The notes beneath the pieces are model-generated. The model made no database searches and was not told where the DNA came from. It saw nothing but the letters and a program-made list of their open reading frames with translations. This document shows, in pieces, positions 3,802 to 29,183 of a DNA stretch of 31,416 nt; the first letter of the stretch is position 1; each line of letters opens with the position of its first letter. The stretch covers positions 1-31,416 of the forward strand of contig JALVYA010000165.1 in assembly GCA_027038095.1 (NCBI GenBank), read 5' to 3'. Origin of the DNA: Archaeoglobaceae archaeon (GTDB lineage Archaea; Halobacteriota; Archaeoglobi; Archaeoglobales; Archaeoglobaceae). The position numbers and the translations under genes were made by a program.

Positions 3802-4368
3802 GGCCTGAGTTTTCTGCACGGGATATTTATTTTTGCCTTTGTTGTTTGCTTGCAGTTTTACGGAAAATGCCTGCGGAGAAAAGGTAATGGGTAAAATGCT
3901 GGAGGTTTTGTTGATTATCTGCATATTTTACTTGCAGGGTAATAAAAGAGGGAATCGAAAGCACTCTAAAGTGGTTGAATATATTGGGAGTGTAAGCCAT
4001 GTCAGTTTTAGTCAGCCTAAGAAATACAGGGTTCGTCGTGATGGATGCTGGAGGAACACGAGTAATATGAAGCTTGGAGACTTCAAAGTAAGAGATTGCA
4101 ACTAACTATACTGCACATAACAGGTCACCATCGACAAAGAGTACAAAAGAAAGCTGGCGGAGCCATTTTGTCTTATGTTGTCCCGTAAACGCAAATCCTG
4201 ATATCAGGTTCGGCAGGTATTCCGATGGCGTCTACATATGAGGTAAATCTATTGAATGGCAATGTACTGAATATAGACTGCAGGATACCACTATAATTGA
4301 CACATCCATAGAAAAAGAGTATAGAAAAAATGGTTGCTTAATTATTTTTATTTCACTTGACAGGTTAT

Positions 4369-6786
4369 CTAAAAAGACCCGAACCTCTTCTCCGTTCTGA
4401 CTTCCTTCTCTATCTCCTCGACGAACTTTATCAGGTTCTCTACTTCACTCTCCGCTGGAGGTAACTTCGACACCTTTTCCGTGAACTCCCTCATCGTTTT
4501 TGCGAATTTCTCACCCTCGCTCGCAGAAATCCACGTGAGCAGCAGCCTCTCCCTGTTAATTCCAAACTGGTCCAGCATCTGCCAGAGTTTTTCCACTCTG
4601 TTTTTGGCCTTGTAGTTTCCCGTCAGGTAGTGGCAATCACCGAGGTGGCAGCCGGCAACTATGACTCCATCAGCACCGTTGAGAAACGCTTTCAGAACGA
4701 AAACTGGATCAACTCTCGCAGAGCACATGACTCTTATCGCTCTCACGTTTGCCGGGTATTTCAGCCTCGCCAGACCTGCGGAGTCTGCTCCTCCGTAGCT
4801 GCACCAGTTGCAGAGAAATGCGAGAATTCTCGGCCTTTCCTCACTTCCATCGAAAGCGTTCTCTATCTGTGCAATTATCTGTCTGTCCGTGAAGCAACCC
4901 ATCTGCAGAGCTCCGGTTGGACAGGCCGCAACGCACCCGCCACAGCCCGAACAGTTTGGTCTTACGTAAGCTTTCCCCCAGCTAAGGTCTATAGCGTTGA
5001 AATCGCATATCTCCTTGCAGAGACCGCAGCCAAAACACAGCTCGGGTATTACATAGGCCGTTATCGGATCGACCTCTATGGCTCCCTTTGACAGCAGAGT
5101 GGCTGCCCTGCTCGCAGCGGCACTTCCCTGAGCGACGCTCGTCGGTATGTCCTTCGGAGAGTGTGCACATCCCGCAATGTATATTCCGGCTATCGCAGTG
5201 TCGACAGGCCTTAACTTTGCGTGAGCTTCCATGAAGAAACCGCTTGAATCGGCTGCAATCCCGAGCTTTTTCCTGAGTTCTTCAGCACCCTCTGCAGGCA
5301 GCATGGCCGGAGCGAGGACGACCATGTCGAAGCTCTCCCTTCTTATTCTTCCTGTTAACGTATCCTCCGCAATGACCTTTAGCTTTTTTACAGCTTTACC
5401 GTCTTCAAAATCCTCGAATTCCTCGATTTTTGCCGGCCTCCCTCTGACGAACCTGACCCCCATTTCTCTGGCTCTCCAGTAGAACTCTTCGTAGCCCTTG
5501 CCAACAGTCCTTATGTCCATGTAGAAGATGCACACGTCCGTTTCCGGACTCTTCTCTTTTATCTGAATTGCGTGCTTTATGGAGTACATGCAGCAAACTC
5601 CCGAGCAGTACTTTCTCATTTCTCCCCTCTCTCCTCTGCTTCCGACGCACTGGATAAACGCTATGCTCTTTGGCTTCTCTCCGTTTTTGAGGACTACTTT
5701 TCCTCCAGTGGGCCCTGAAGCGTTGATGAGTCTCTCGAACTCCATGCTCGTTATCACGTTTTCGTAGACGCCGTAGCCGTACTCCGGAATGTTTGACGGA
5801 TCAAAGAGGTCGTATCCCGTAGCAACTATTATCGCTCCGACTTCTATTTCCTCTATTTCGTCTCTCTGCTCGTAGTCTATTGCCTTTGGCAGGCAGACGT
5901 CTTCGCAGATTCCACATCCCATGCACGCTGCTGGATCGATTGTGTAAGTTAGAGGCACAGACTGAGGGAATGGCAGGTATATCGCTTTTCTCTTGGAAAG
6001 ACCACAGTTGAACTCGTCGTCAACCTCCACAGGGCAGTGTTCGGCACACACACCGCAACCCGTGCACGCATCTGTAACGAATCTGGCCTTTTTTCTGACC
6101 CTGACCTTGAAATTACCGACGTAGCCATCGACGCTCTCTATCTCCGCGTAGGTTATGACGTGAATTCTTTCGTGTCTGTACGCCTCCACCATTTTCGGGC
6201 CGAGAATGCATATCGAACAGTCGAGGGTTGGAAACGTCTTGTCAAGCTGAGCCATGTGCCCTCCTATACTCGGACTTCTCTCAATCAGGTAAACTTCGAA
6301 TCCCTGCTCTGCCAGATCCAAAGCAGCCTGAATTCCGGAAACTCCGCCACCTATTACCATTGCTTTGTCTATCAGGGAAATCCTCTTCTTTTCCAGAGGC
6401 TCGAGATACCACGCTTTGGCAACTGCCATTCTTACCAGAGCCTTGGCTTTCTCCGTCGCCTCTCTTCCCCTGTGGACCCATGAACAGTGTTCTCTTATGT
6501 TCGCCATTTCCAGCATGTACGGGTTCAGTCCGACCTCCTCTATGCAGTTCCTGAAGAGGTTTTCGTGCATTCTCGGACTGCATGCTGCAACCACAACTGC
6601 GTTGGCGTCGCATTCAGCCAGTACTTCCTTTATCATTTTCTGTCCGCTCGAAGAGCAGAGGTATTTGTTGTGTTTAGCAACAACGACTCCCGGTAAGGTT
6701 GAGGCGTACTCAACGACTTCCTCCACGTCAACTTCTCCGGCTATGTTCTTTCCGCAGTGGCAGACGAAAACCGCAACTTTATTCAT
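4369..6786 (-). CDS. hdrA: Heterodisulfide reductase subunit A fused to a C-terminal MvhD [2Fe-2S] domain (MvhD about 4369-4836)
   Basis: N-terminal VFVCHCG, ACSPRMHE and NIREHCSWVH; Rossmann VIGGGVSG; MEFERL; CSGVCCMYSIKH; four ferredoxin-type Cys motifs. Followed by MvhD motifs FLCNWCSY, RVMCSARVD, GCHLGDCHY, WISASEG. Confidence 0.95.
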   Translation of the reverse strand: MNKVAVFVCHCGKNIAGEVDVEEVVEYASTLPGVVVAKHNKYLCSSSGQKMIKEVLAECDANAVVVAACSPRMHENLFRNCIEEVGLNPYMLEMANIREHCSWVHRGREATEKAKALVRMAVAKAWYLEPLEKKRISLIDKAMVIGGGVSGIQAALDLAEQGFEVYLIERSPSIGGHMAQLDKTFPTLDCSICILGPKMVEAYRHERIHVITYAEIESVDGYVGNFKVRVRKKARFVTDACTGCGVCAEHCPVEVDDEFNCGLSKRKAIYLPFPQSVPLTYTIDPAACMGCGICEDVCLPKAIDYEQRDEIEEIEVGAIIVATGYDLFDPSNIPEYGYGVYENVITSMEFERLINASGPTGGKVVLKNGEKPKSIAFIQCVGSRGERGEMRKYCSGVCCMYSIKHAIQIKEKSPETDVCIFYMDIRTVGKGYEEFYWRAREMGVRFVRGRPAKIEEFEDFEDGKAVKKLKVIAEDTLTGRIRRESFDMVVLAPAMLPAEGAEELRKKLGIAADSSGFFMEAHAKLRPVDTAIAGIYIAGCAHSPKDIPTSVAQGSAAASRAATLLSKGAIEVDPITAYVIPELCFGCGLCKEICDFNAIDLSWGKAYVRPNCSGCGGCVAACPTGALQMGCFTDRQIIAQIENAFDGSEERPRILAFLCNWCSYGGADSAGLARLKYPANVRAIRVMCSARVDPVFVLKAFLNGADGVIVAGCHLGDCHYLTGNYKAKNRVEKLWQMLDQFGINRERLLLTWISASEGEKFAKTMREFTEKVSKLPPAESEVENLIKFVEEIEKEVRTEKRFGSF

Positions 6787-6804
6787 TTAACCACCTTTAA
6801 CAAA

Positions 6805-8139
6805 TTAATTTTGCGTTTTCTCACTTCCGGACTTCTTCTTGCGAGCAGCCATCTGCTTTAACTTTTCCACGTCGGGCTTTCCAACCCTTATCAGACCTTC
6901 GTTGATCGCTCCGTCAACTATCTGCTTTCCTATCTCTGTTCTCGTTATTACAGTTCTCCATCCCTTCTGAGAACCGGCATTACCAAAGGATATGTCTGCA
7001 AATTCAGCACTCAGATCCCTGCAAACTCTGCACGATAGAGCCTCTTTTTCGGGGTGCTTCCCTCTGGGACAGAAAACACCCATTATAAGCTTTATCTCGT
7101 CGTGACCGAGCATTTTCATTTTCCTCGCAGCCTTTGACTGACATGGGACTCCAACGACTGCGATTTTCCTGTAACCTTTTTTAACAGCCTCTTTCAGGAG
7201 AGCTAACGTTGGAGCAACCACGAATTTTATTCCGGAGCACTCTTCAAGCTTTTCAGGCTTTGTGATTATAGTGGGCTCGTCTCCGACGACTATTGCGCAG
7301 TCAATTATTCCTTTTTCCATGGCATACTTGAGCAGGGCTGTTGCAGCTCCGGCTTTTTTTTCATCTCCTTTCCCCGACCTCTTTGCAGAAATTATGTCGA
7401 TGTACTCTCCGAGCGGATCCTCGCTCTCCTCAAGTTTGAAGTAGTCAGTTTTCGGACACTTGAGCAGGCAGGAAGCACAGTTTCTGCACTCCTCAACGAG
7501 GTACGGGTAGCTCAACCTGCCATCGACCGTTATTCTCAACACATCTTCTGGACAGGCAGAAACGCAGGCTCCGCAGATGGAGCAGAGTTTTCTGCCTATA
7601 ACTTCAGCGTGCAGAAGCGAAAATATGTCTCCTGCTTTTTCAAATTTTTTTATGACCTCGGGTATGTTCACATCGCCACCCGCCTCGAACATTCTCCTGA
7701 GCAATCCAGTGGAAAACCACTCCGATACGTAATCCGGAAACCTTTTCAGCTTTTTAGCTTCTTTTTTCTCTTTTGCTTCCTTCTCTACTGCTTTTGCCAC
7801 TTCTTTCTCTTCCACTTCCCCCGCTTCTGCCTCTTTTTCCAGCTCTTCAGCCACTCCCGCCTCTTTCCCTGCTTCTTTCTTCTCCTCTTCTTCTTTTTTC
7901 TCCTCGACCTCTTCAACTACAAGTTCAAGAGCGTTAAAGGGGCATACCTTAACGCATACTCCGCACCCTTCACACAGAAACCCGCTTTTAAGCTTCCCGC
8001 TCTCTATTCTCATCGTAACCGTGTTGTTAACAGGACAGACTGCAGCACAGTTACCGCAACCGATGCACTTCTCCTCGTAAACCTTTATGTATATTTTTGG
8101 TTCCATTCCGAGATTCTGGGTTCTAACATCAACAGCCAT
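6805..8139 (-). CDS. Fusion protein: FwdG-like 2x[4Fe-4S] ferredoxin, Glu/Lys-rich linker, and FpoF/FqoF/FrhB-like (F420 dehydrogenase beta family) domain
   Basis: N-terminal CIGCGNCAAVCPVN and CEGCGVCVKVCP; linker at aa ~76-131; EVIGRKLCSICGACVSACP and CRNCASCLLKCP; FrhB-type VGVPCQ, GVFC, CRVCRD, ADISFGNAGS, GWRTVITRTEIG. GAGGTG RBS-like motif upstream. Confidence 0.85.
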   Translation of the reverse strand: MAVDVRTQNLGMEPKIYIKVYEEKCIGCGNCAAVCPVNNTVTMRIESGKLKSGFLCEGCGVCVKVCPFNALELVVEEVEEKKEEEEKKEAGKEAGVAEELEKEAEAGEVEEKEVAKAVEKEAKEKKEAKKLKRFPDYVSEWFSTGLLRRMFEAGGDVNIPEVIKKFEKAGDIFSLLHAEVIGRKLCSICGACVSACPEDVLRITVDGRLSYPYLVEECRNCASCLLKCPKTDYFKLEESEDPLGEYIDIISAKRSGKGDEKKAGAATALLKYAMEKGIIDCAIVVGDEPTIITKPEKLEECSGIKFVVAPTLALLKEAVKKGYRKIAVVGVPCQSKAARKMKMLGHDEIKLIMGVFCPRGKHPEKEALSCRVCRDLSAEFADISFGNAGSQKGWRTVITRTEIGKQIVDGAINEGLIRVGKPDVEKLKQMAARKKKSGSEKTQN

Positions 8140-8142
8140 TTG

Positions 8143-8910
8143 TCACACCTCTTTTGTAACTCTTTTTAAAGCGTTCTCATGCTGGGTGAACCACGGGTAA
8201 AACGCGTTCTCGATTCTGACGTCCTCTCTCCTGATTTCTATCACCTTTGTCGGGCAGGCGTTTCTGCATGCTCCGCAGAGTATGCACACATCCATGTCCA
8301 CGCTCATTTTTCGTCCATCAAAGCTTATGGCGTGTGACGGACAAATGTCCATACAGACTCCGCAGAACTTGCAGTCCTCTCCGATTACGACCTCTCCGCT
8401 TATGGGTTTTTCAACGAATATCTTGTCGTCCGGACACAGCTTTGCGCACCTCCCGCAGAAAATGCACAGATCTTCTATCCACTCCTTCGTCGCTCTGCTT
8501 TCTCCTTCCGCTTTGTCCTCTTTTTTCTCCCCGTCTGCACTGGTTTTATCGACTATCGCACCCCATGGACATGCTTCCACGCATATACTGCAGTCTTCAC
8601 ACTCAAAATCGGCAAAAAACAGCCTTTTCAGCCTTATTTTAGCGCCTTCAACCTTAATCGCTCCTGAAGGACAGATTTCAGAACATACTCCGCAAAGAAT
8701 ACAGCTTTTTTCGTCAATTCTAACTCTCGGTTTTCCTATGAACATGTAGGCTAGGGGATACAGTCTTATAGCGTTCTGAGGACAAGCACTTGTGCACAGC
8801 TCGCAACCGAAGCAGAGCGACGTATCGTATGTGAGCATTCTCCTGACCTCTCCTTCCACGACCCTTTTTATCACGAAAATGTTTCCCCTGTACTCTGAAA
8901 TGTTCATCAT
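8143..8910 (-). CDS. FwdF/FmdF-like polyferredoxin with six CxxCxxCxxxCP motifs
   Basis: CFGCELCTSACP, CILCGVCSEICP, CEDCSICVEACP, CIFCGRCAKLCP, CKFCGVCMDICP, CILCGACRNACP. The N-terminus (IKRVVEGEVRRMLTYD) and the C-terminal W-containing helix resemble FwdF. Confidence 0.85.
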   Translation of the reverse strand: MMNISEYRGNIFVIKRVVEGEVRRMLTYDTSLCFGCELCTSACPQNAIRLYPLAYMFIGKPRVRIDEKSCILCGVCSEICPSGAIKVEGAKIRLKRLFFADFECEDCSICVEACPWGAIVDKTSADGEKKEDKAEGESRATKEWIEDLCIFCGRCAKLCPDDKIFVEKPISGEVVIGEDCKFCGVCMDICPSHAISFDGRKMSVDMDVCILCGACRNACPTKVIEIRREDVRIENAFYPWFTQHENALKRVTKEV

Positions 8911-8933
8911 TGAGCATGTGGGATAGTTTGCAA

Positions 8934-8948
8934 TATTTAACGTTTTGC
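8934..8948 (-). promoter_or_regulatory. Putative BRE-TATA promoter of the polyferredoxin / FrhB-like / hdrA operon
   Basis: The minus strand reads GCAAAACG-TTAAATA, about 24 nt upstream of the ATG at 8910. Confidence 0.55.
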
Positions 8949-8971
8949 CACGTCGTATGACGATATGTAAA

Positions 8972-9000
8972 CAATACTAACTATTAATCGTTATGTATTG
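8972..9000. promoter_or_regulatory. Imperfect inverted repeat (candidate operator) between the divergent hdr operons
   Basis: CAATACTAAC-TATTAATC-GTTATGTATTG: 10-bp arms with one bulge, centred on the palindrome ATTAAT. Confidence 0.45.
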
Positions 9001-9053
9001 CTGGTAATTTCAACGACAGATAGTGTTAAATTTCGAAAGCTAAATGTTAGCTC

Positions 9054-9584
9054 ATGAAGTGTTACCAGTGCGGGACATGCACGGCAGATTGCACGTACGC
9101 AAACATCGATGAAAGCGGTAATTTCAACCCGAGAAGGATGATGCTTGATTACTTCGAGAAAGGAAAGCTGTCAGAGCTCTGCTGGCTTTGTGCAGAGTGC
9201 TTCAAGTGCTACAGGTGTCCCAGAGACGTCAAACCTTACGCAGTGCTGGCGGAGATGAGAGCCGAATTCATCAAAAAGGGTAAGGTTCCGGCGTACGTTA
9301 AGGCGTTCGTCGAAACGGTTAAAAATTACGGGGAGCTTGACGAGACGGCATTCTTTCTGAAGCTCATGAAATCCGGTAACATGATGGACATGTCCATCGT
9401 AATCTCGTCCCTGAAGAACACTTTAAAGAACAGAGGTATATCCAAAGCGATTGCTCTGCCGAAAAAAAGTCCGTGTGCGGGAGAGGTATCCAGGATATTT
9501 TCAGCTGTTGAGGGTAAAGATAAAGTGAAGCTTGAAGCTGAGGAAAAATCCAGAAGCATAGCTGCAGCAGGTGTGCCTGCATGA
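9054..9584 (+). CDS. hdrC: Heterodisulfide reductase subunit C-like 2x[4Fe-4S] protein, lacking the usual N-terminal segment
   Basis: CYQCGTCTADC, NPRRMM, WLCAECFKCYRCPRDV. In-frame TAG at 9048-9050 fixes the start. ATGA overlap with hdrB. Confidence 0.85.
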   Translation: MKCYQCGTCTADCTYANIDESGNFNPRRMMLDYFEKGKLSELCWLCAECFKCYRCPRDVKPYAVLAEMRAEFIKKGKVPAYVKAFVETVKNYGELDETAFFLKLMKSGNMMDMSIVISSLKNTLKNRGISKAIALPKKSPCAGEVSRIFSAVEGKDKVKLEAEEKSRSIAAAGVPA

Positions 9585-10342
9585 AGCTCGCCTTCTTCCC
9601 CGGTTGCTCGGCAAAAAGCTCCGGAATGGAGTACGCCAAGTCATCACTGGAGCTGATGAAAAAGCTCGGTCTGGAAATTGCATGTCCGGAATTCAACTGC
9701 TGCGGAACTCACATAGTCGAGGAGTACAACAAAAACATCTGGTTGGCTTTGAACGCGAGAAACCTGTCTCTCGCTGAAGAAATTGGAGCGGACATAGTTA
9801 CGACCTGTCCGGCCTGCTATCAGAACCTGAAAAAAACGAATCTGGAGCTTGGAGACGAAAAAGTGCTTGAGGATGTTAACAGCGTGCTGGCAAGTGTGAA
9901 CAGAGAGTACAGAGGAAGTGTAAGTGTGTTCCACGTGATTGAAGTCCTGAGCAAACTCTCCAGGAAAATTGCCGTTGAAAGCAGGCTCAAAGTAGCAGCC
10001 TACTACGGCTGTCAGATACTGAGACCACCGGAGCTCGGAATAGACGATAACATCGAAAATCCAACGGTGTTCGAGAACTTCCTGAAGAATGCAGGTTTTG
10101 AAGTCGTGGACTTCAAAGCAAAAACTGAGTGCTGTGGCGGACCACTCCTGCTCACAGATTCAGATGCTTTCAAAAAGAGAGCGTTAACCATAGTTCTGGA
10201 GGCAAAGAAGGCGGGAGCCGATTGCATAACCACACTCTGTCCCCTCTGCCAGTTCTCTCTTGAAGTTGTTCAGGATAAGATGCCTGTTAGGCCCTTTACG
10301 AGCCTGATTCTGGAGAATCTGGCGAGTCAGATATCCGAATAA
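9581..10342 (+). CDS. hdrB: Heterodisulfide reductase subunit B-like protein with two CCG domains
   Basis: FFPGCS...NCCG...TCPACY and YYGCQ...ECCGG...LCPLCQ give ten Cys for two non-cubane clusters; also ALNARNLSLAE. Confidence 0.92.
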   Translation: MKLAFFPGCSAKSSGMEYAKSSLELMKKLGLEIACPEFNCCGTHIVEEYNKNIWLALNARNLSLAEEIGADIVTTCPACYQNLKKTNLELGDEKVLEDVNSVLASVNREYRGSVSVFHVIEVLSKLSRKIAVESRLKVAAYYGCQILRPPELGIDDNIENPTVFENFLKNAGFEVVDFKAKTECCGGPLLLTDSDAFKKRALTIVLEAKKAGADCITTLCPLCQFSLEVVQDKMPVRPFTSLILENLASQISE

Positions 10343-14296: not shown

Positions 14297-15421
14297 CTAA
14301 ATTTCCGAAAACTTTAGACACAGCCTTTCCAGCAGCTTCTTTCTTTCTAACACCTTATTCAAAACCTCTGCAGCACCGTTACCCGTTGAAATGATCGACG
14401 TAACGGGCTGGTAACGTTCAAATTCTTCACCCCACTCCGGTATGTCCGCGAAGAACGGGCTGTGTGGCGAGATACAGGCTCTCAGTTCTGAAGGACTGTA
14501 GTAAACAGCCCTGCAGGCGACCCTTTTTGGTTTTAATTTCAGGTCTTTCAGGTTTAATTTCCCTTCAAAAGTCCTGACGTGGAGGTCGAACAGTCCTGCG
14601 TCGTGGCTGAGCTCAAAAGAGTCGAGACTTCCCGGAATTCTCGGATTCAGCTCGAGGACGAAAACGCTATCGTTGCAAACGACCATGTCTACGCCACAGC
14701 AACCTTCCACGTCAAACAGGCTTGCAACTTCCTCGGAAATTCTTCTCGCCTTAACAAGCACATCTCTGCTGAGCGGGGATACTGCTTCAGCAGGCGTAAC
14801 GTTTCCGGAGTAGAGAAATCCGCATGCGTTCATTTCCTTCCATCCGGAGAGGAGTTTGTTAATCGCTATGCACTTCGTGCAGCTGCTGCTGGATAGAACT
14901 ATTGCCGATATCGTTTCCCCTTCCACGTACTTCTGCGGAATGTATTCCCTCTTTTTTCCCCCTCCATCTCTTTCGCTTTCGAATTTCAGGGCTTCAGAAT
15001 CGCCTGAAAAATCGCCTGAAAAAACTATTCCCACGCCTCCTCCACCAAACCTCGGCTTGAGAATAGTTCTGCCGTTTTCAAAGCTTTTTCCGATTTCGGG
15101 ATACGCTATTCCGGCTCTTTCAAGCTCTCTGTAAAACTTCAGCTTGTCCAGACACCTTTCATCGAAGCTTCCAGCCACCTCCACCTTTCTCCTGATTTTG
15201 CTCGCAAACTTTTCCATTCCCGTTGTCAGGACGGCAAACGTTCCTTTCTCCTCGCACAGCCTAACAACGAGTTCTGCGGAATTTTCGTCAAACCTGTAGT
15301 ATTCGTCGGCGTAAAGCTTTAAGTCTTCATCGCAGTACTTTACCACTGCAAAAACTTCGTATCCTGATATTTTCGCAGATTTTACGACATTTCTCGCATT
15401 TATTCCTGCAACGACTGCCAT
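14297..15421 (-). CDS. ATP-grasp domain protein (archaeal carboligase/amide-ligase-like, substrate unknown)
   Basis: LDKLKFY, ILKPRFGGGGVGI, QKYVEG, GCCGVDMV, VLELNPRIPGS (ATP-grasp ExNPR). Overlaps the end of cofE by 22 bp. Confidence 0.82.
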   Translation of the reverse strand: MAVVAGINARNVVKSAKISGYEVFAVVKYCDEDLKLYADEYYRFDENSAELVVRLCEEKGTFAVLTTGMEKFASKIRRKVEVAGSFDERCLDKLKFYRELERAGIAYPEIGKSFENGRTILKPRFGGGGVGIVFSGDFSGDSEALKFESERDGGGKKREYIPQKYVEGETISAIVLSSSSCTKCIAINKLLSGWKEMNACGFLYSGNVTPAEAVSPLSRDVLVKARRISEEVASLFDVEGCCGVDMVVCNDSVFVLELNPRIPGSLDSFELSHDAGLFDLHVRTFEGKLNLKDLKLKPKRVACRAVYYSPSELRACISPHSPFFADIPEWGEEFERYQPVTSIISTGNGAAEVLNKVLERKKLLERLCLKFSEI

Positions 15422-16170
15422 TCCTTTATAATCCTCCTTATAACGTCCTCCTCATCACTTCTGTACACGCTTCGAAATTCGCCCTCTCCGCCATCTAAGA
15501 GATTTTTGACACCCCTGAAAACGACTGCCGGTACCGAGTAATCCCCTTCTCCCATCAGCAGGTTCGCAAAAGCGGCAATTTCGTCAGCCACGCACTCGCT
15601 CGTTTTCGTCAGCCTCTTGCCAAAAAGGTCTCTTTTGCCAATCCAGTTTTTCAGGGGATTCACCCCAGAACACCCTATGGCAAAGCCCGTAACGCCCTTC
15701 CTGAAGCACCTTCCGTTCGTATCCGTGAGTATCACTCCAACTTCGCAGCCAGAAATTTCTTTTATGGCATCCCTTAACTTTCTTGCACTCAAATCGGGGT
15801 TTTCCGGTGGAAGCAGTACGAAACCGTCCTCGACGTTTGACCTGTCCACGCCGGCGTTTACGCATACGTTGCCAAACTTCGCTTTGACGAGCAGAAACGG
15901 ATGGCTTATCAGTATCTCCTCGCTTTCCTCAAGCACGGCCTGAACGAACCTCGCCTCTTCCCCGAGCTTTTCCGCTATTTCAACAGCTTCTCTGGAAGGA
16001 GTGTAGCTGTCCAGTTTTCTCACCCTGCCCTCAGCCCTCGACACGATTGTGGAGCTGACGGCAACCACATCTCCATCCAAAACGCGTGGCGCTATTATTT
16101 CAGCTATTTCCCTCAGCGTCGTTTCCTTGAGCAGAGGAAACCTTACGGGTATTACTCTTACCTCCGACAC
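15400..16170 (-). CDS. cofE: Coenzyme F420-0:L-glutamate ligase
   Basis: VSSTIVSRAEGR, VCVNAGVDRSN, LLPPENPDLSA, VILTDTNGRCFRKG, ADEIAAFANLLMGEG. GTG start. Confidence 0.93.
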   Translation of the reverse strand: MSEVRVIPVRFPLLKETTLREIAEIIAPRVLDGDVVAVSSTIVSRAEGRVRKLDSYTPSREAVEIAEKLGEEARFVQAVLEESEEILISHPFLLVKAKFGNVCVNAGVDRSNVEDGFVLLPPENPDLSARKLRDAIKEISGCEVGVILTDTNGRCFRKGVTGFAIGCSGVNPLKNWIGKRDLFGKRLTKTSECVADEIAAFANLLMGEGDYSVPAVVFRGVKNLLDGGEGEFRSVYRSDEEDVIRRIIKEWQSLQE

Positions 16171-19992: not shown

Positions 19993-21858
19993 ATGGGATA
20001 CATGGGTAAGATTCTTGATGTCAACCTCAGCGAGGGCAGCATCAAAGTCGAGAAAACGGACATGGAAATAGCTGAAAAGTACATCGGCGGTAAGGGCTAC
20101 GCAACTGCCGTTCTGTACGAGATTCTCAGAGAATACTCAAAAGAGGGAATTTCTCCAAAGGACATAAACCCTCTTGGAGAGGAGAATGTAATGGTATTTG
20201 CTACCGGGCCTGCAACCGGAATTGCAGGCTTTCCATCGTCTGGCAGGTATCACGTAATGGCTCTCAAATCTCCTTTAACGAACTCCATTGCGAGTGCGAA
20301 TTCTGGAGGTAAATGGGGGCCCTACTTAAAGTTTGCCGGATTTGACGCTGTAATAATAAGAGGTGCTTCTCCTGAGCCGGTATACCTCGAAATCTTCGAT
20401 GGAGGGGCAGAGATAAGAACGGCAACACACCTGTGGGGAAGGACGACCTTTGACACGACAAAAATACTCACCGAGAAGTACGGAAAGTGCAGCGTAACGT
20501 GCATAGGCCCGGCAGGAGAGAACGGAGTTCTGTTTTCAGCCATAATAAACGACAACCACAGAGCGGCTGGAAGAACCGGCGTTGGAGCAATAATGGGGAG
20601 CAAGGGATTAAAGGCGATAGTCGTGGGCGGAAGCAACAGACCCGAACCGGCTGAACCGGAGAGGTATAAAGAAGTCGTTAAGAAAGCTGTTGAAAAGATA
20701 AAGACCCATCCGATAACGGGTGAAGGTCTGCCAAAGTACGGGACAGCCGTTCTCGTCAACATAATAAACAACGCCGGAATATTCCCGACGAAGAACTGGC
20801 AAACCGGAGTACATCCAAAAGCCGATGCCATAAGCGGTGAAACTCTCGCCGAAAAGTACCTTATAAGAAATGGTGCCTGCTGGGGCTGCCAGATAGGGTG
20901 TGCGAGAGTGACGAAGGTGGATTCCGGAGCTTACCAGATAAAGTACTCTGAAGGCCCGGAGTACGAGTCGATATGGGCGTTTGGAGGAACTACCGAAATA
21001 GAAGAACTCGACGCAGTAATCAAGGCAAACCACCTTTGCGACGAACTCGGAATTGACACGATATCAATGGGTTCAACATTGGCATGCGCAATGGAACTCG
21101 TGGAGAAAGGCTACATTCCCGAAGAGCTGCTTGAAGGGATTGACCTGAGGTTTGGAAACGCTGCTGCAATCGTTGAGATGGTCTGGAGAACTGCGTACAA
21201 GAGCGGTTTTGGAAAGTATCTGGCTCTCGGCAGTAAGAGGCTCGCAGAACTCTTCAACTGTCCGGACCTTTCCATGAGCGTTAAGGGGCTGGAGCTTCCG
21301 GCTTACGATCCAAGAGGTGCGAAGGGTATCGGCCTCAACTACGCAACTGCAAACAGAGGTGGCTGTCACGTTACAGGCTATACGATATCTCCGGAAATAC
21401 TTGGCTGTCCCGAGAAGATCGATCCGCTAAGCTACGAGGGCAAAGCCCAGTGGGTTAAGGCCTTCCAGGACCTCACCTGCGTTGTAAATTCAACCGTAAA
21501 CTGTCTGTTCACGACGTTTGCTCTCGGTGCTGAGGACTACGCACACCTGCTCTCCGCAGTTACTGGCAGAGAACTGAGCACCGAAGATATAATGCTGATC
21601 GGAGAGAGGATATACAACCTCGAAAGGTACATAATGAACCTGTACGGCTTCGACGGAAAAGACGATGTCCTGCCCAGAAGGCTGCTTAAAGAGCCGATGC
21701 CTGAAGGAGCGGCAAAGGGAGAAGTCGTCGACTTGGACAGGCTGAAAGAGGAGTACTACAAACTCAGGGGATGGGAGAACGGAAAGCCGACAAAGGAGAA
21801 GCTTGAGGAGCTCGGCATTCCTGAGTTAAAGCTCTCCAAGGTCTCGCCAGTTGTATGA
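19993..21858 (+). CDS. aor: Tungsten-dependent aldehyde:ferredoxin oxidoreductase
   Basis: KSPLT, GRTGVGAIMGSKGLKA, CWGCQIGC, EGPEYES, DELGIDTIS, YDPRG, NRGGCH. Confidence 0.92.
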   Translation: MGYMGKILDVNLSEGSIKVEKTDMEIAEKYIGGKGYATAVLYEILREYSKEGISPKDINPLGEENVMVFATGPATGIAGFPSSGRYHVMALKSPLTNSIASANSGGKWGPYLKFAGFDAVIIRGASPEPVYLEIFDGGAEIRTATHLWGRTTFDTTKILTEKYGKCSVTCIGPAGENGVLFSAIINDNHRAAGRTGVGAIMGSKGLKAIVVGGSNRPEPAEPERYKEVVKKAVEKIKTHPITGEGLPKYGTAVLVNIINNAGIFPTKNWQTGVHPKADAISGETLAEKYLIRNGACWGCQIGCARVTKVDSGAYQIKYSEGPEYESIWAFGGTTEIEELDAVIKANHLCDELGIDTISMGSTLACAMELVEKGYIPEELLEGIDLRFGNAAAIVEMVWRTAYKSGFGKYLALGSKRLAELFNCPDLSMSVKGLELPAYDPRGAKGIGLNYATANRGGCHVTGYTISPEILGCPEKIDPLSYEGKAQWVKAFQDLTCVVNSTVNCLFTTFALGAEDYAHLLSAVTGRELSTEDIMLIGERIYNLERYIMNLYGFDGKDDVLPRRLLKEPMPEGAAKGEVVDLDRLKEEYYKLRGWENGKPTKEKLEELGIPELKLSKVSPVV

Positions 21859-27262: not shown

Positions 27263-28270
27263 ATGAAACCTGAAAAGCCCGTGAGGTTGAGGGATTTCGT
27301 GAAGTTCAGGGACTGCTACTTTTCGGTCGTTTCTTACTTCAACTACCCTGAAGTTAAATGCCTGCTGAGGTACGCTCCGGCTGAAATGGTTTCAAACGAA
27401 AATTTGGAGGTGAGGGGAAATTACGTAAAGCTGAGTCACGAGCAGGCACTGGAGTTTTTCAGGGAGTACGAAAGAGGAGGCATTTTTTACCTTCCAGCCA
27501 GTGAAGTTGAAGTTTTAAAGCCGGAAGAGTTAACGCCCGGGATTGTTGAAAAGGATGGCGTTGCGAAAAAAGTTTACGAGTTTTTCAGGGTTCCACCGTC
27601 GCACAAGGGCGTTACCGGCTCACGGCTGATCGGTCTGAACAGAGAGGATTCGGACGTTGACTTCGTGGTTTACGGAGACTGGTGGTTCAGGGCGAGAGAA
27701 GAGCTGATTAGAGGTGTGAAAAGGGGCGTTCTCTCCCAGCCAGACGAGGACTGCTGGAAAAAAATATACAGGAAAAGAAGGCCGGCAATAGACTTCGACA
27801 CGTTCGTCATGCACGAAGAAAGAAAGTTTCACAGAGCTTTTATCGGAGATACTTACTTCGATCTGCTCTACGTCAGAGACTACGACAGGATTTACGAATT
27901 TGAAGAATTTTCGGGAATTAAAGCCGGCATGGCTGAGATAACGGGAAGGCTTGCAGACGATTCAGCGGTGTTTGACTACCCCGCAAGGTACCCGCTCGAG
28001 GACGTTGAGTTCGTCCATGCAGAGCTCTTTGATACAGATGAAGATGAAACTGAAATTAAATTAGACGACGTTCTGAGTCTCTCGTCGGTAGAGGTTCTCT
28101 CCTTCACCCACACCTACGCAGGTCAGGCGTTTGCCGGGGAGAGGGTGAGGGCTTACGGTGTCGTGGAAATAGGCTCGAAGGTGAAGCCGGAGGTAAAGCT
28201 CGTGGTGGGAACTCGAAGGGAATGTGAAGAGTTTATAATTTCTGAAAGTCTGGTAAACCGCAATGGTTGA
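27263..28270 (+). CDS. Uncharacterised archaeal nucleotidyltransferase (Pol-beta superfamily)
   Basis: GVTGS...[10 protein letters not shown] (GS...DxD motif), FTHTYAGQA. Overlaps the cofD start by 8 bp. Confidence 0.75.
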
Positions 28271-29183
28271 GTGTAAAAATTACGACCTGTGTTTTCTTTC
28301 CGGAGGAACAGGAACTCCGAAGCTGCTCAGAGGCTACTCCGCATTGAATCCACACTTCAGCGTAGTCGTGAACGTCGCTGAAGACATCTGGATTTCTGGA
28401 AATAAGCTGTGTCCGGACATAGATTCCGTTATTTACGCAATAGCTGGCGTAATAGACGACGAAAAGTGGTGGGGTGTGAAAGGAGACACCTTCGTGACTC
28501 ACGAGAGGTTAAAGGAGCTCGGCTTTGACGAGGGGCTGATGATAGGTGACATCGACAGGGCAACACACATAGCGAGGAGCGAACTTCTGAGAAAGGGGTA
28601 CACGCTGACTCAGGCTACGAGGGTCGTAAAAAACTCTTTTCAGGTCAAAGCTGAAATCCTGCCGGTGTGTGAAGAAGAGGTTAAAACGTACGTTAAAACC
28701 CCGGAGGGGTGGATGCACTTTCAGGAGTTCTGGGTTTTGAGGAAGGGCGAACCCGAAGTGGAGGACGTGGAGTTCAGGGGGATTGAAAAAGCTGTCGTCA
28801 CCGAAGACGCACGCAGAGCCATGGAGAACAGCGACGCTGTGGTCATAGGCCCGAGCAACCCGGTAACGAGCATACTGCCGATACTTGAGGTTAAAGGCGT
28901 GAGAAAACTTCTGAAAGACAGAGTCGTGATTGCCGTGTCACCCATAGTAAAAGGTAAGCCCGTGAGTGGTCCGGCTGCAAAGCTCATGAGGGCGAAGGGT
29001 CTGGAGGTATCTGCAAACGGCGTTGCAGAATTTTACTCGGACTTTCTGGATCTGATAGTCGTTCACAGCGGTGACAGGTGCAGTTACAGGCACGAAGAGA
29101 CGAACATACTGATGAAGAGCAGAGAAGATGAAGTGAGGCTGGCAAAATTCCTGCTCGGGGTTGTAGAAAAACTTTTGAGTTAA
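28263..29183 (+). CDS. cofD: 2-phospho-L-lactate transferase (F420-0 synthesis)
   Basis: [71 protein letters not shown]. Confidence 0.95.

Follow-up and report, generated by a model that had tools for sequence, protein, structure and literature searches.

What feeds, and what drains, a heterodisulfide reductase (Hdr)-type gene cluster in an archaeon that is not a methanogen? The question is raised by a 31,416-nucleotide stretch of DNA from an Archaeoglobaceae archaeon (hereafter the window), which is the whole of contig C165 of a metagenome-assembled genome (MAG; G000) of 1.05 Mb, 68.6% complete and with 0.84% contamination. The closest named relatives of the window proteins are from Archaeoglobus, dsrAB is encoded in the same genome, and the window DNA was met in hydrothermal-vent metagenomes of at least two studies. 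An initial annotation had described five genes of the window as a self-contained Hdr cluster with an F420-type input module, wiring of the formylmethanofuran dehydrogenase (Fwd) type and an unspecified disulfide as acceptor. We lean, with some reserve, towards a reading in which these genes code for the core of a soluble Hdr-type complex with flavin-based bifurcation (reversibly, confurcation) in dsrAB-positive, non-methanogenic Archaeoglobaceae, fed by F420H2 and linked to Fwd. The module would probably be the non-methanogen counterpart of the Hdr-Fmd machine of methanogens. The gene content, motifs, fold, synteny and phyletic pattern reported below are direct observations.

Gene content of the Hdr-type locus

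The locus consists of two tight, divergent operons. The minus-strand operon encodes a FwdF-like polyferredoxin, a ferredoxin-FrhB-like fusion and an HdrA-MvhD fusion, and the plus-strand operon encodes HdrC-like and HdrB-like proteins. All five open reading frames (ORFs) lie exactly where the initial annotation had placed them (lengths in amino acids, aa):

3925-4368, no strand: non-coding gap (444 bp) 3' of hdrA-mvhD, at the place where sister genera carry fwdA-fwdC
4369-6786, minus strand: HdrA-MvhD fusion, 805 aa (NCBIfam HdrA2)
4369-4845, minus strand: MvhD ([2Fe-2S]) part with C-terminal tail and stop codon (Pfam FlpD)
4849-6786, minus strand: HdrA part, with flavin adenine dinucleotide (FAD) domain, N-terminal cluster domain, and inserted and C-terminal ferredoxin domains (alignment to 5odc_A)
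6805-8139, minus strand: ferredoxin-linker-ferredoxin-FrhB-like fusion, 444 aa (Pfam domains, motifs)
7030-7071, minus strand: place where the FrhB-like domain has lost the 'lid', with only 12 residues between the FC(357) and C(370)xxC ligands
8143-8910, minus strand: FwdF-like polyferredoxin, 255 aa, first gene of the minus operon (six CxxCxxCxxxC(P) motifs)
8911-9053, no strand: divergent intergenic region, 143 bp, with two TTAAAT-type boxes (putative archaeal promoters)
9054-9584, plus strand: HdrC-like protein, 176 aa (two [4Fe-4S] motifs, C3-C13 and C43-C55)
9581-10342, plus strand: HdrB-like protein, 253 aa (two complete CCG motifs)

The junctions are as close as had been described: 3 nucleotides (nt) lie between the polyferredoxin and fusion genes and 18 nt between the fusion gene and hdrA, hdrC and hdrB overlap by 4 nt (ATGA), and the three internal genes are preceded by ribosome-binding sites of the GGTG type (GAGGTG, GGTGG and AGGTG). 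Because TTAAAT-type boxes stand about 23-30 nt 5' of the ATG of both operon-first genes, the position of these boxes suggests that both transcripts are leaderless. Our own count of Cys motifs arrives at the same number of clusters as the initial annotation, namely 21 [4Fe-4S]-type sites (six in the polyferredoxin, 4+1 in the fusion, six in HdrA, two in HdrC and two non-cubane sites in HdrB) plus one [2Fe-2S] in MvhD.

HdrA and MvhD are near-canonical. The fusion scores over the NCBIfam HdrA2 cut-off (NF040770; 1130.6 versus 1100 bits, aa 3-781 of 805), and it comprises a complete HdrA followed by MvhD in a single chain, as in HdrA2-type proteins: aa 3-645 align to HdrA 5odc_A (E 8e-241) and aa 648-780 to MvhD 5odc_D (E 1e-51). 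The HdrA part carries four ferredoxin motifs, the N-terminal cysteines and C380/394/398/399, and conserves the Cys190/Cys193 pair. The MvhD part (Pfam FlpD, 182.9 bits) aligns gap-free to 5odc_D and to ElpC 8rvu_F, with His714/Asp717 corresponding to ElpC His67/Asp70. Roles in passing electrons to the flavin of bifurcation have been discussed for both the Cys pair of HdrA and the His/Asp of MvhD (PMC13580544).

The best family of the polyferredoxin is FwdF, at 161 bits and below the cut-off of 375, and among PDB sequences it matches 9sfi_T and FwdF 5t5i_F (E 1.6e-37) best. Because the latter alignment covers residues 107-330 of 349, the protein reads as a FwdF without the first two-cluster module. 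Compared with Hdr-Fmd supercomplexes, the locus thus holds the HdrABC core with an MvhD-type connector and a polyferredoxin of the FmdF/FwdF/MvhB type, with six clusters instead of eight; none of the known donor modules (MvhAG, FdhAB, ElpAB) is encoded in the window.

In the place of such a module stands the fusion protein. It begins with a 2x[4Fe-4S] domain (aa ~18-76), followed by an E/K-rich linker (aa ~77-130) and a helical segment that is conserved (aa ~131-178); after these come another 2x[4Fe-4S] domain (aa 186-228) and an FrhB/FpoF-type flavin/[4Fe-4S] domain (aa ~240-444). Besides Fer4 domains, it passes the cut-offs of PF04422 (47.4 bits; cut-off 22) and PF04432 (77.7 bits; cut-off 23.3), and scores far under all NCBIfam equivalog cut-offs (FrhB, FpoF). 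The linker (window 7750-7911, minus strand) is an E/K/A-rich low-complexity sequence whose length differs by tens of residues among relatives; the segment at aa ~131-178 contains the invariant residues E140, T144, G145, R148, R149, E152, F166 and E167 and is a candidate docking element.

Genomic context and the proposed link to formylmethanofuran dehydrogenase

The fusion is rare. At E <= 1e-30, 24 proteins were recovered among 1.84 billion cluster representatives, where the architecture is represented by just three full-length sequences plus fragments. Full-length matches from Chloroflexota (22-25%) were rejected as relatives, as they have an HdrA-like/FrhB-like/GXGXG (glutamate-synthase-type) arrangement. 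Among 96 Archaeoglobi genomes, 21 carry the fusion (5 of 21 genera), and it was not found at the same threshold in the 75 others. A pattern-based locus scan missed the nearest relatives and gave mostly generic ferredoxin/fwdF loci of methanogens.

The same neighbourhood is recovered across the carriers. In every carrier examined, the fusion gene lies between the polyferredoxin gene and hdrA-mvhD, it is operonic with hdrA in 21/21, and hdrC-hdrB is divergent wherever enough flanking sequence is available, although it was not seen upstream in one locus (L007). More specifically, the operon runs on from hdrA-mvhD into fwdA and fwdC in three sister genera, often with overlapping junctions (A. veneficus, L001/L115; genus g13, L116-118 and L006; genus g17, L119-123, L009 and L002-4). 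The cluster abuts cdhABC-cooC in A. veneficus and in G071, and in A. veneficus it is flanked by fwdB with a gene for a CdhB-like/2x[4Fe-4S] protein as well. Taken together with the homology of the polyferredoxin to FwdF, this orthologous operon supports the Fwd-type wiring proposed initially; operon membership across three genera is, as an argument from gene order, the strongest available support for such a predicted wiring.

In the four further genomes of the window's genus, hdrA-mvhD is the last gene of the operon, and fwdAC has been relocated between thi4 and a Toprim-domain gene. Judged by identity, the relocated pair is the orthologue of the operonic one (68-70% identical to the A. veneficus copy, with 48-51% for the canonical fwdDBAC present in some congeners). 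The relocated fwdA is the sole fwdA found in G000 and in its nearest relative, the 99%-complete G067, which shares 95-99% protein identity with it over the Hdr cluster. Because the HdrA-MvhD tree places the window's genus with A. veneficus (92/100) and within the fwd-linked genera, parsimony makes it probable that the linkage is ancestral and that the window's genus lost it, in a single event.

The pair of fwdB and a gene for a CdhB/ACS-epsilon-like (PF02552)-2x[4Fe-4S] fusion is kept between the window's genome (G000 C216, L136:4651-6774, minus strand) and A. veneficus (L001:13983-16003, minus strand), with no fwdD alongside. The CdhB-like/2x[4Fe-4S] protein may be a replacement of FwdG.

Electron input, disulfide and rival explanations

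Could the FrhB-like domain accept electrons from F420H2? Its most striking feature is a deletion. The spacing from PCQ to CxxC is 37 residues across the fusion family versus 80-100 in 102 canonical homologues, and positions 44-92 of the PF04432 profile are unmatched. By alignment, the deletion corresponds to residues 173-253 of Fsr, in which a ferredoxin-platform loop (171-189) and a lid (204-253) have been described (PMC10229431), and thus takes in the loop region and the ~50-residue lid. Of the 32 positions that are at least 75% conserved among the 102 canonical FrhB-type homologues, just one falls inside the deleted stretch, and the fusion family keeps 26, including all four cluster Cys. 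An AlphaFold model of aa 170-444 built from 94 sequences (predicted local distance difference test, pLDDT, 93) matches best the zeta subunit of an F420-reducing carbon monoxide dehydrogenase (CODH; 8riu_B, TMq 0.88) and FwdI from an F420-reducing Fwd (8rja_E, TMq 0.85), followed by FrhB and Fsr, with ElpB/FdhB at just 0.60; a 14-sequence model of the complete fusion (pLDDT 56) was discarded as unusable. Judged by the aa 170-444 model, the domain has most probably remained a flavin/[4Fe-4S] module with the fold of F420 reductases; ElpB/FdhB, which dock on Hdr, are not its orthologues. F420 is a plausible donor in view of the conserved residues, and the presence of cofE and cofD in the window counts in favour of an F420 input.

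A few other lidless FrhB proteins exist. Because one of them, P0179, adjoins hdr genes as well, there together with sulfur-relay genes, this hints that the lidless FrhB is a recurrent partner of Hdr. The metagenomic contig with P0179 (L138:1406-8298, plus strand) reads dsrE/H, hdrC-like, hdrB (298-aa ORF), hdrA, mvhD, an FrhG-like gene (Oxidored_q6), the lidless FrhB gene and tusA.

On the disulfide side, HdrB-like and HdrC-like proteins have the motifs of the HdrBC that reduces the heterodisulfide of coenzymes M and B (CoM-S-S-CoB), that is two CCG and two [4Fe-4S] motifs: HdrB-like carries C9..C40C41G..C76xxC79 and C144..C184C185G..C220xxC223 (Pfam CCG, 87 bits), without the C-terminal ~45 aa of methanogen HdrB, and HdrC-like carries a dicluster domain with both [4Fe-4S] motifs. 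Several lines of evidence speak for another substrate. mcrA was not found in G000, in the 20 other carriers (including an A. veneficus-type genome) or in four near-complete congeners, and the fusion is absent from all ten mcrA-positive Archaeoglobi. By contrast, dsrA is present in 18 of the 20 other carriers, the two without it being 89-91% complete, and every carrier genus is dsrA-positive. In four near-complete relatives, DsrC is present and ComA, which represents just one route of CoM synthesis, was not found. Because HdrB-like and HdrC-like also score below their equivalog cut-offs, the disulfide is probably not CoM-S-S-CoB, which agrees with the choice of the initial annotation to leave it unnamed. 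For the same reasons, we rejected the idea that a match to the HdrA2 model implies CoM-S-S-CoB chemistry. For A. fulgidus and for sulfate-reducing bacteria, DsrC has been proposed earlier to partner with Hdr-like enzymes (PMC3949148), and by this analogy oxidised DsrC or its trisulfide would be the leading candidate. Several of the Archaeoglobi dsrA matches (G018, G021, G023, G025, G060 and others) read through one in-frame TGA (a few through TAA/TAG), which could be selenocysteine, a sequencing error or a broken gene.

From these observations we infer the physical complex, its substrates and each step of electron transfer. A two-electron donor, most likely F420H2, would be oxidised at the FAD of the lidless FrhB-like domain, and the electrons would pass through the [4Fe-4S] of this domain and the adjoining ferredoxin domain(s) to the N-terminal clusters of HdrA and the [2Fe-2S] of MvhD, and from there to HdrA's bifurcating FAD. 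The high-potential electron would leave through HdrC and the two non-cubane clusters of HdrB to a protein or low-molecular-weight disulfide other than CoM-S-S-CoB, with oxidised DsrC or its trisulfide as candidate. The low-potential electron would travel through the inserted ferredoxin domain of HdrA to the FwdF-like polyferredoxin with its six clusters, which would hand it to a dedicated formylmethanofuran dehydrogenase (FwdA, FwdC, FwdB and the CdhB-like/2x[4Fe-4S] protein) or to free ferredoxin. The outcome would be to drive the conversion of CO2 to formylmethanofuran in the Wood-Ljungdahl pathway. The reaction is expected to be reversible, and the reductive direction would suit A. veneficus, which is an autotroph. 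In G067 and in the window's organism, F420H2 could derive from formate through FdhAB.

Several observations weigh against this F420H2-fed, Fwd-linked reading. In the window itself, fwdAC is not adjacent to hdrA-mvhD, and no remnant of fwdA or fwdC was detected in the 444-bp gap that follows. The input domain has no lid and belongs to another subfamily than ElpB/FdhB; because the lid is missing and the window's genus also carries Q->K, G->A and Y->F at three conserved positions (Q-x-G-G and G-x-K-Y motifs), F420 is no more than a putative donor. Because its fold is nearer to FwdI/zeta (0.85-0.88) than to ElpB/FdhB (0.60), the fusion may sit on the Fwd/polyferredoxin side. Since the genome also encodes FdhAB (C93) and at least four other HdrA paralogues, partners could be exchanged. 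Finally, HdrB-like reaches 151.4 bits versus an HdrB equivalog cut-off of 345 and HdrC-like 53.8 bits versus an HdrC equivalog cut-off of 160, and the identity of the disulfide is a guess.

These points lend themselves to other explanations. The position of the fusion on the Fwd side would follow if the locus encoded an F420-reducing, FwdI-type formylmethanofuran dehydrogenase, working mainly in the oxidation of formylmethanofuran to CO2 with electrons passed to F420, and with HdrABC confurcating thiol electrons into the F420 pool or serving as a second outlet. We regard this as rather unlikely. It would agree with the best folds of the FrhB module, FwdI (8rja_E) and CODH-zeta (8riu_B) of Ca. 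Ethanoperedens (PMC11493965), with the CdhB-like/ferredoxin fusion that adjoins fwdB, with the confurcation to F420 proposed for anaerobic methanotrophic archaea (ANME; PMC9012536), and with the FrhB-like genes of other archaea that immediately precede fwdA, or lie close to fwd genes, where no hdrA is present. The fusion nevertheless remained with hdrA and the polyferredoxin gene when fwdAC was relocated in the window's genus, and the lidless P0179 lies in an hdrCBA-mvhD cluster without fwd. Furthermore, FwdI supplants FwdF in Ethanoperedens whereas a FwdF-like protein is retained here, and thiol oxidation would be futile for a sulfite reducer. The two loci in other archaea are of interest by themselves: in one archaeon an FrhB-like gene lies directly 5' of fwdA (L010:4374-7087, plus strand), in a Methanothrix MAG another lies near polyferredoxin-fwdACB (L011:1229-9939, plus strand), and both are possible FwdI-type F420-linked Fwd enzymes outside Ethanoperedens.

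A further alternative, which we consider less likely again, is that the lidless domain no longer uses F420, its exposed flavin being fed by a protein partner, reduced ferredoxin or another cofactor, or the domain being a mere relay or structural module. The ~50-residue lid and the loop corresponding to Fsr 171-189 are deleted family-wide, the motif substitutions of the window's genus and the low equivalog scores point the same way, and HdrA2 of M. acetivorans has been reported to oxidise F420H2 by itself (PMC5296606; PMC12054007). On the other hand, the deletion holds only the one conserved column, purifying selection has clearly preserved the fold and the other cofactor-facing positions over four genera, more distant family members retain the G-G motif, and the organism makes F420 (cofE, cofD). 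It is more improbable still that the module depends on a donor encoded elsewhere, HdrA-MvhD being fed in vivo by FdhAB from formate or, in hydrogenase-bearing relatives, by MvhAG, with the FrhB fusion as an accessory or alternative entry. A strong fdhA match with an FdhB-like gene on C93, the [NiFe] hydrogenases of G069, G071 and A. veneficus, and the interchange of Mvh, Fdh and Elp modules on one Hdr in methanogens (PMC12350162, PMC13580544) would fit such an arrangement. It is opposed by the strict operonic association of the fusion with hdrA in all carriers, by the failure to detect a [NiFe] hydrogenase, which other congeners do have, in G067, which retains the Hdr cluster, or in G000, and by other HdrA-MvhD sets of the genome that could serve Fdh.

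How self-contained the cluster is thus depends on the scale. No hydrogenase or Fdh gene was found in the 31-kb window, as the initial annotation had stated for MvhAG and FdhA; this does not extend to the genome, and because fdhA/FdhB-like and FqoF-like genes (the latter on C36) and at least four further HdrA paralogues lie elsewhere in it, the locus is self-contained and the genome is not. On C93 (L129:1-2698, plus strand), an FdhB/FrhB-like gene that is cut off where the contig ends comes after fdhA (TIGR01591, 921 bits versus a cut-off of 666), and judging by this pairing the two likely encode an F420-dependent formate dehydrogenase, a possible source of F420H2. Of the marker genes suggested for a check of this genome, dsrAB and fwdAC were found, whereas mcrA and [NiFe] hydrogenase were not detected in G000.

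Two further contigs of this genome carry Hdr genes in other arrangements. C83 (L130:2-5479, minus strand) holds another set, hdrA (705 aa)-hdrC-hdrB-mvhD, after which comes a 471-aa [FeFe]-hydrogenase-like ORF truncated at its 3' end. Against NCBIfam group A6 this ORF reaches 369 bits (cut-off 765), and it keeps the L2 motif MPCTAKKFE, with TSCSPGW rather than TSCCP as L1. It is an [FeFe]-hydrogenase-like candidate partner of Hdr in an Archaeoglobaceae genome without detected [NiFe] hydrogenases. C49 (L132:1-3126, plus strand) carries HdrA and a FwdF-like polyferredoxin (aa 688-947, 171 bits to FwdF) in a single 1041-aa ORF with its N-terminal end cut by the contig end, that is, an HdrA-polyferredoxin contact in covalent form.

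The rest of the window contains hemL/hemC/cobA, genes for a ClC channel and an ABC transporter, housekeeping genes, and the following; no Rfam family or tRNA was found in the window.

3-767, window: cdhE (3' part), which the initial annotation had correctly named as a neighbour of the cluster
15400-16170, minus strand: cofE (F420 biosynthesis)
19993-21858, plus strand: aldehyde:ferredoxin oxidoreductase (AFOR domains)
28263-29183, plus strand: cofD (F420 biosynthesis)

The F420 biosynthesis genes and the AFOR gene thus share the contig with the Hdr cluster. Enzymes with AFOR domains are usually tungsten-dependent.

Returning to the F420H2-fed, Fwd-linked reading, we put forward, as a tentative extension that we hold to be possible rather than probable, a 'Wolfe-cycle-like' coupling without methane in sulfite/thiosulfate-reducing Archaeoglobaceae. 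An F420H2-dependent Hdr-Fwd supercomplex, with a lidless, doubly ferredoxin-tethered FrhB as input, would use the exergonic reduction of a DsrC disulfide/trisulfide (or another sulfur-relay disulfide), arising in dissimilatory sulfite reduction, to drive CO2 to formylmethanofuran. If true, a non-methanogen would have respiration and carbon fixation wired firmly together within a single particle.

Comparison with known systems

Hdr-Fmd supercomplexes are seen as central to hydrogenotrophic methanogenesis. That the same wiring occurs, operonic with fwdAC, in mcr-less, dsrAB-positive hosts suggests that direct channelling from Hdr to CO2 fixation may predate methanogenesis or, at the least, is not bound to it. 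The substrate question of soluble Hdr-like enzymes in sulfate-reducing archaea becomes concrete and testable, and A. veneficus, which is cultured and carries the complete operon, can be used for testing. The lidless FrhB subtype, found repeatedly beside hdrA-mvhD, is a defined target for how F420 modules dock on Hdr.

The closest precedent is Elp-Hdr-Fmd of Methanothermobacter marburgensis (Nomura et al., 2025; PMC12350162; PDB 8rvu), an F420H2-dependent Hdr purified and resolved by cryogenic electron microscopy, in which the donor resembles FdhB, the connector resembles MvhD and a polyferredoxin makes the link to Fwd. Shared with it, and known here from genes, are an FAD/[4Fe-4S] subunit of the FrhB/FdhB superfamily, an MvhD-type connector to HdrA, HdrBC, a polyferredoxin leading to Fwd/Fmd, and no hydrogenase. 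Unlike that system, the locus is without ElpA (a truncated FdhA); its donor is of the FpoF/Fsr/FwdI type rather than ElpB-like (TMq 0.60 to ElpB versus 0.88 to zeta), lidless and extended by a further ferredoxin domain on a tether; HdrA and MvhD form one chain; and the polyferredoxin counts 6 clusters in place of 8 or 12. As the host is dsrAB-positive and no methanogen, CoM-S-S-CoB cannot be presumed as the disulfide.

The solved Fdh-Hdr-Fmd of Methanospirillum hungatei (PDB 7bkb) and Mvh/Vhu-Hdr-Fwd assemblies (PMC13580544, PMC13518236) have in common with the locus the HdrABC-MvhD core and an FmdF/FwdF polyferredoxin bridging HdrA to Fwd; they differ in the donor module, in the split fwd genes seen here (in sister genera, fwdAC is operonic and fwdB elsewhere) and in the host, which here is not a methanogen. 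hdr and fwd genes are clustered in Methanocella too (PMC12054007).

FwdI and CODH zeta of Ca. Ethanoperedens thermophilum (Lemaire et al., 2024; PMC11493965; PDB 8rja, 8riu), which combine a ferredoxin and an F420-reductase domain (FAD, one [4Fe-4S]) and associate with Fwd or CODH, are the best structural matches of the fusion and share with it the ferredoxin domain joined to an FrhB fold with one [4Fe-4S]. In contrast to the fusion, they have a full-length reductase domain with the lid region, replace FwdF and work without Hdr; the fusion has a second tethered ferredoxin and is always beside hdrA-mvhD, and a FwdF-like gene heads its operon. HdrA2B2C2 of M. acetivorans, which performs F420H2/ferredoxin-dependent bifurcation (Yan et al., 2017; PMC5296606), has an HdrA-MvhD fusion that passes the same NCBIfam model and an hdrA2 gene operonic with a polyferredoxin gene; its operon differs in having no FrhB-like gene and no fwd linkage, and the enzyme reduces CoM-S-S-CoB.

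In ANME-1, ANME-2d and alkane-oxidising archaea, HdrA clusters with FrhB/FdhB paralogues have been discussed and F420-linked bifurcation or confurcation has been proposed (Chadwick et al., 2022; PMC9012536). There too, hdrA lies beside an FrhB-family gene; going by their descriptions, those clusters are set apart by Mcr-bearing hosts, mostly an FdhA homologue and no operonic fwdAC. Finally, the Mvh:Hdl of A. fulgidus and A. profundus is likewise a soluble Hdr-like enzyme, here of sulfate-reducing archaea, for which bifurcation with an unknown disulfide or DsrC, and low-potential electrons for CO2 fixation, have been proposed (Mander et al., 2004; Hocking et al., 2014, PMC3949148); unlike the present locus, it is hydrogenase-dependent.

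The claim that the architecture is uncharacterised consequently holds in part. The general design, from F420H2 through an FAD subunit and MvhD to HdrA, and through a polyferredoxin to Fwd, is already characterised in methanogens as Elp-Hdr-Fmd and proposed for ANME, which lessens the novelty of the reading that we favour; no description of this Archaeoglobaceae operon was found in the limited library of literature searched, though the A. veneficus genome has been public for years. What sets this locus apart is its donor of the FpoF/FwdI type, which is lidless, carries an additional tethered ferredoxin and stands without ElpA; a FwdF with six clusters; split fwd genes paired with a CdhB-like ferredoxin; an HdrBC pair in divergent orientation; and, above all, the dsr-positive, mcr-negative archaeal host.

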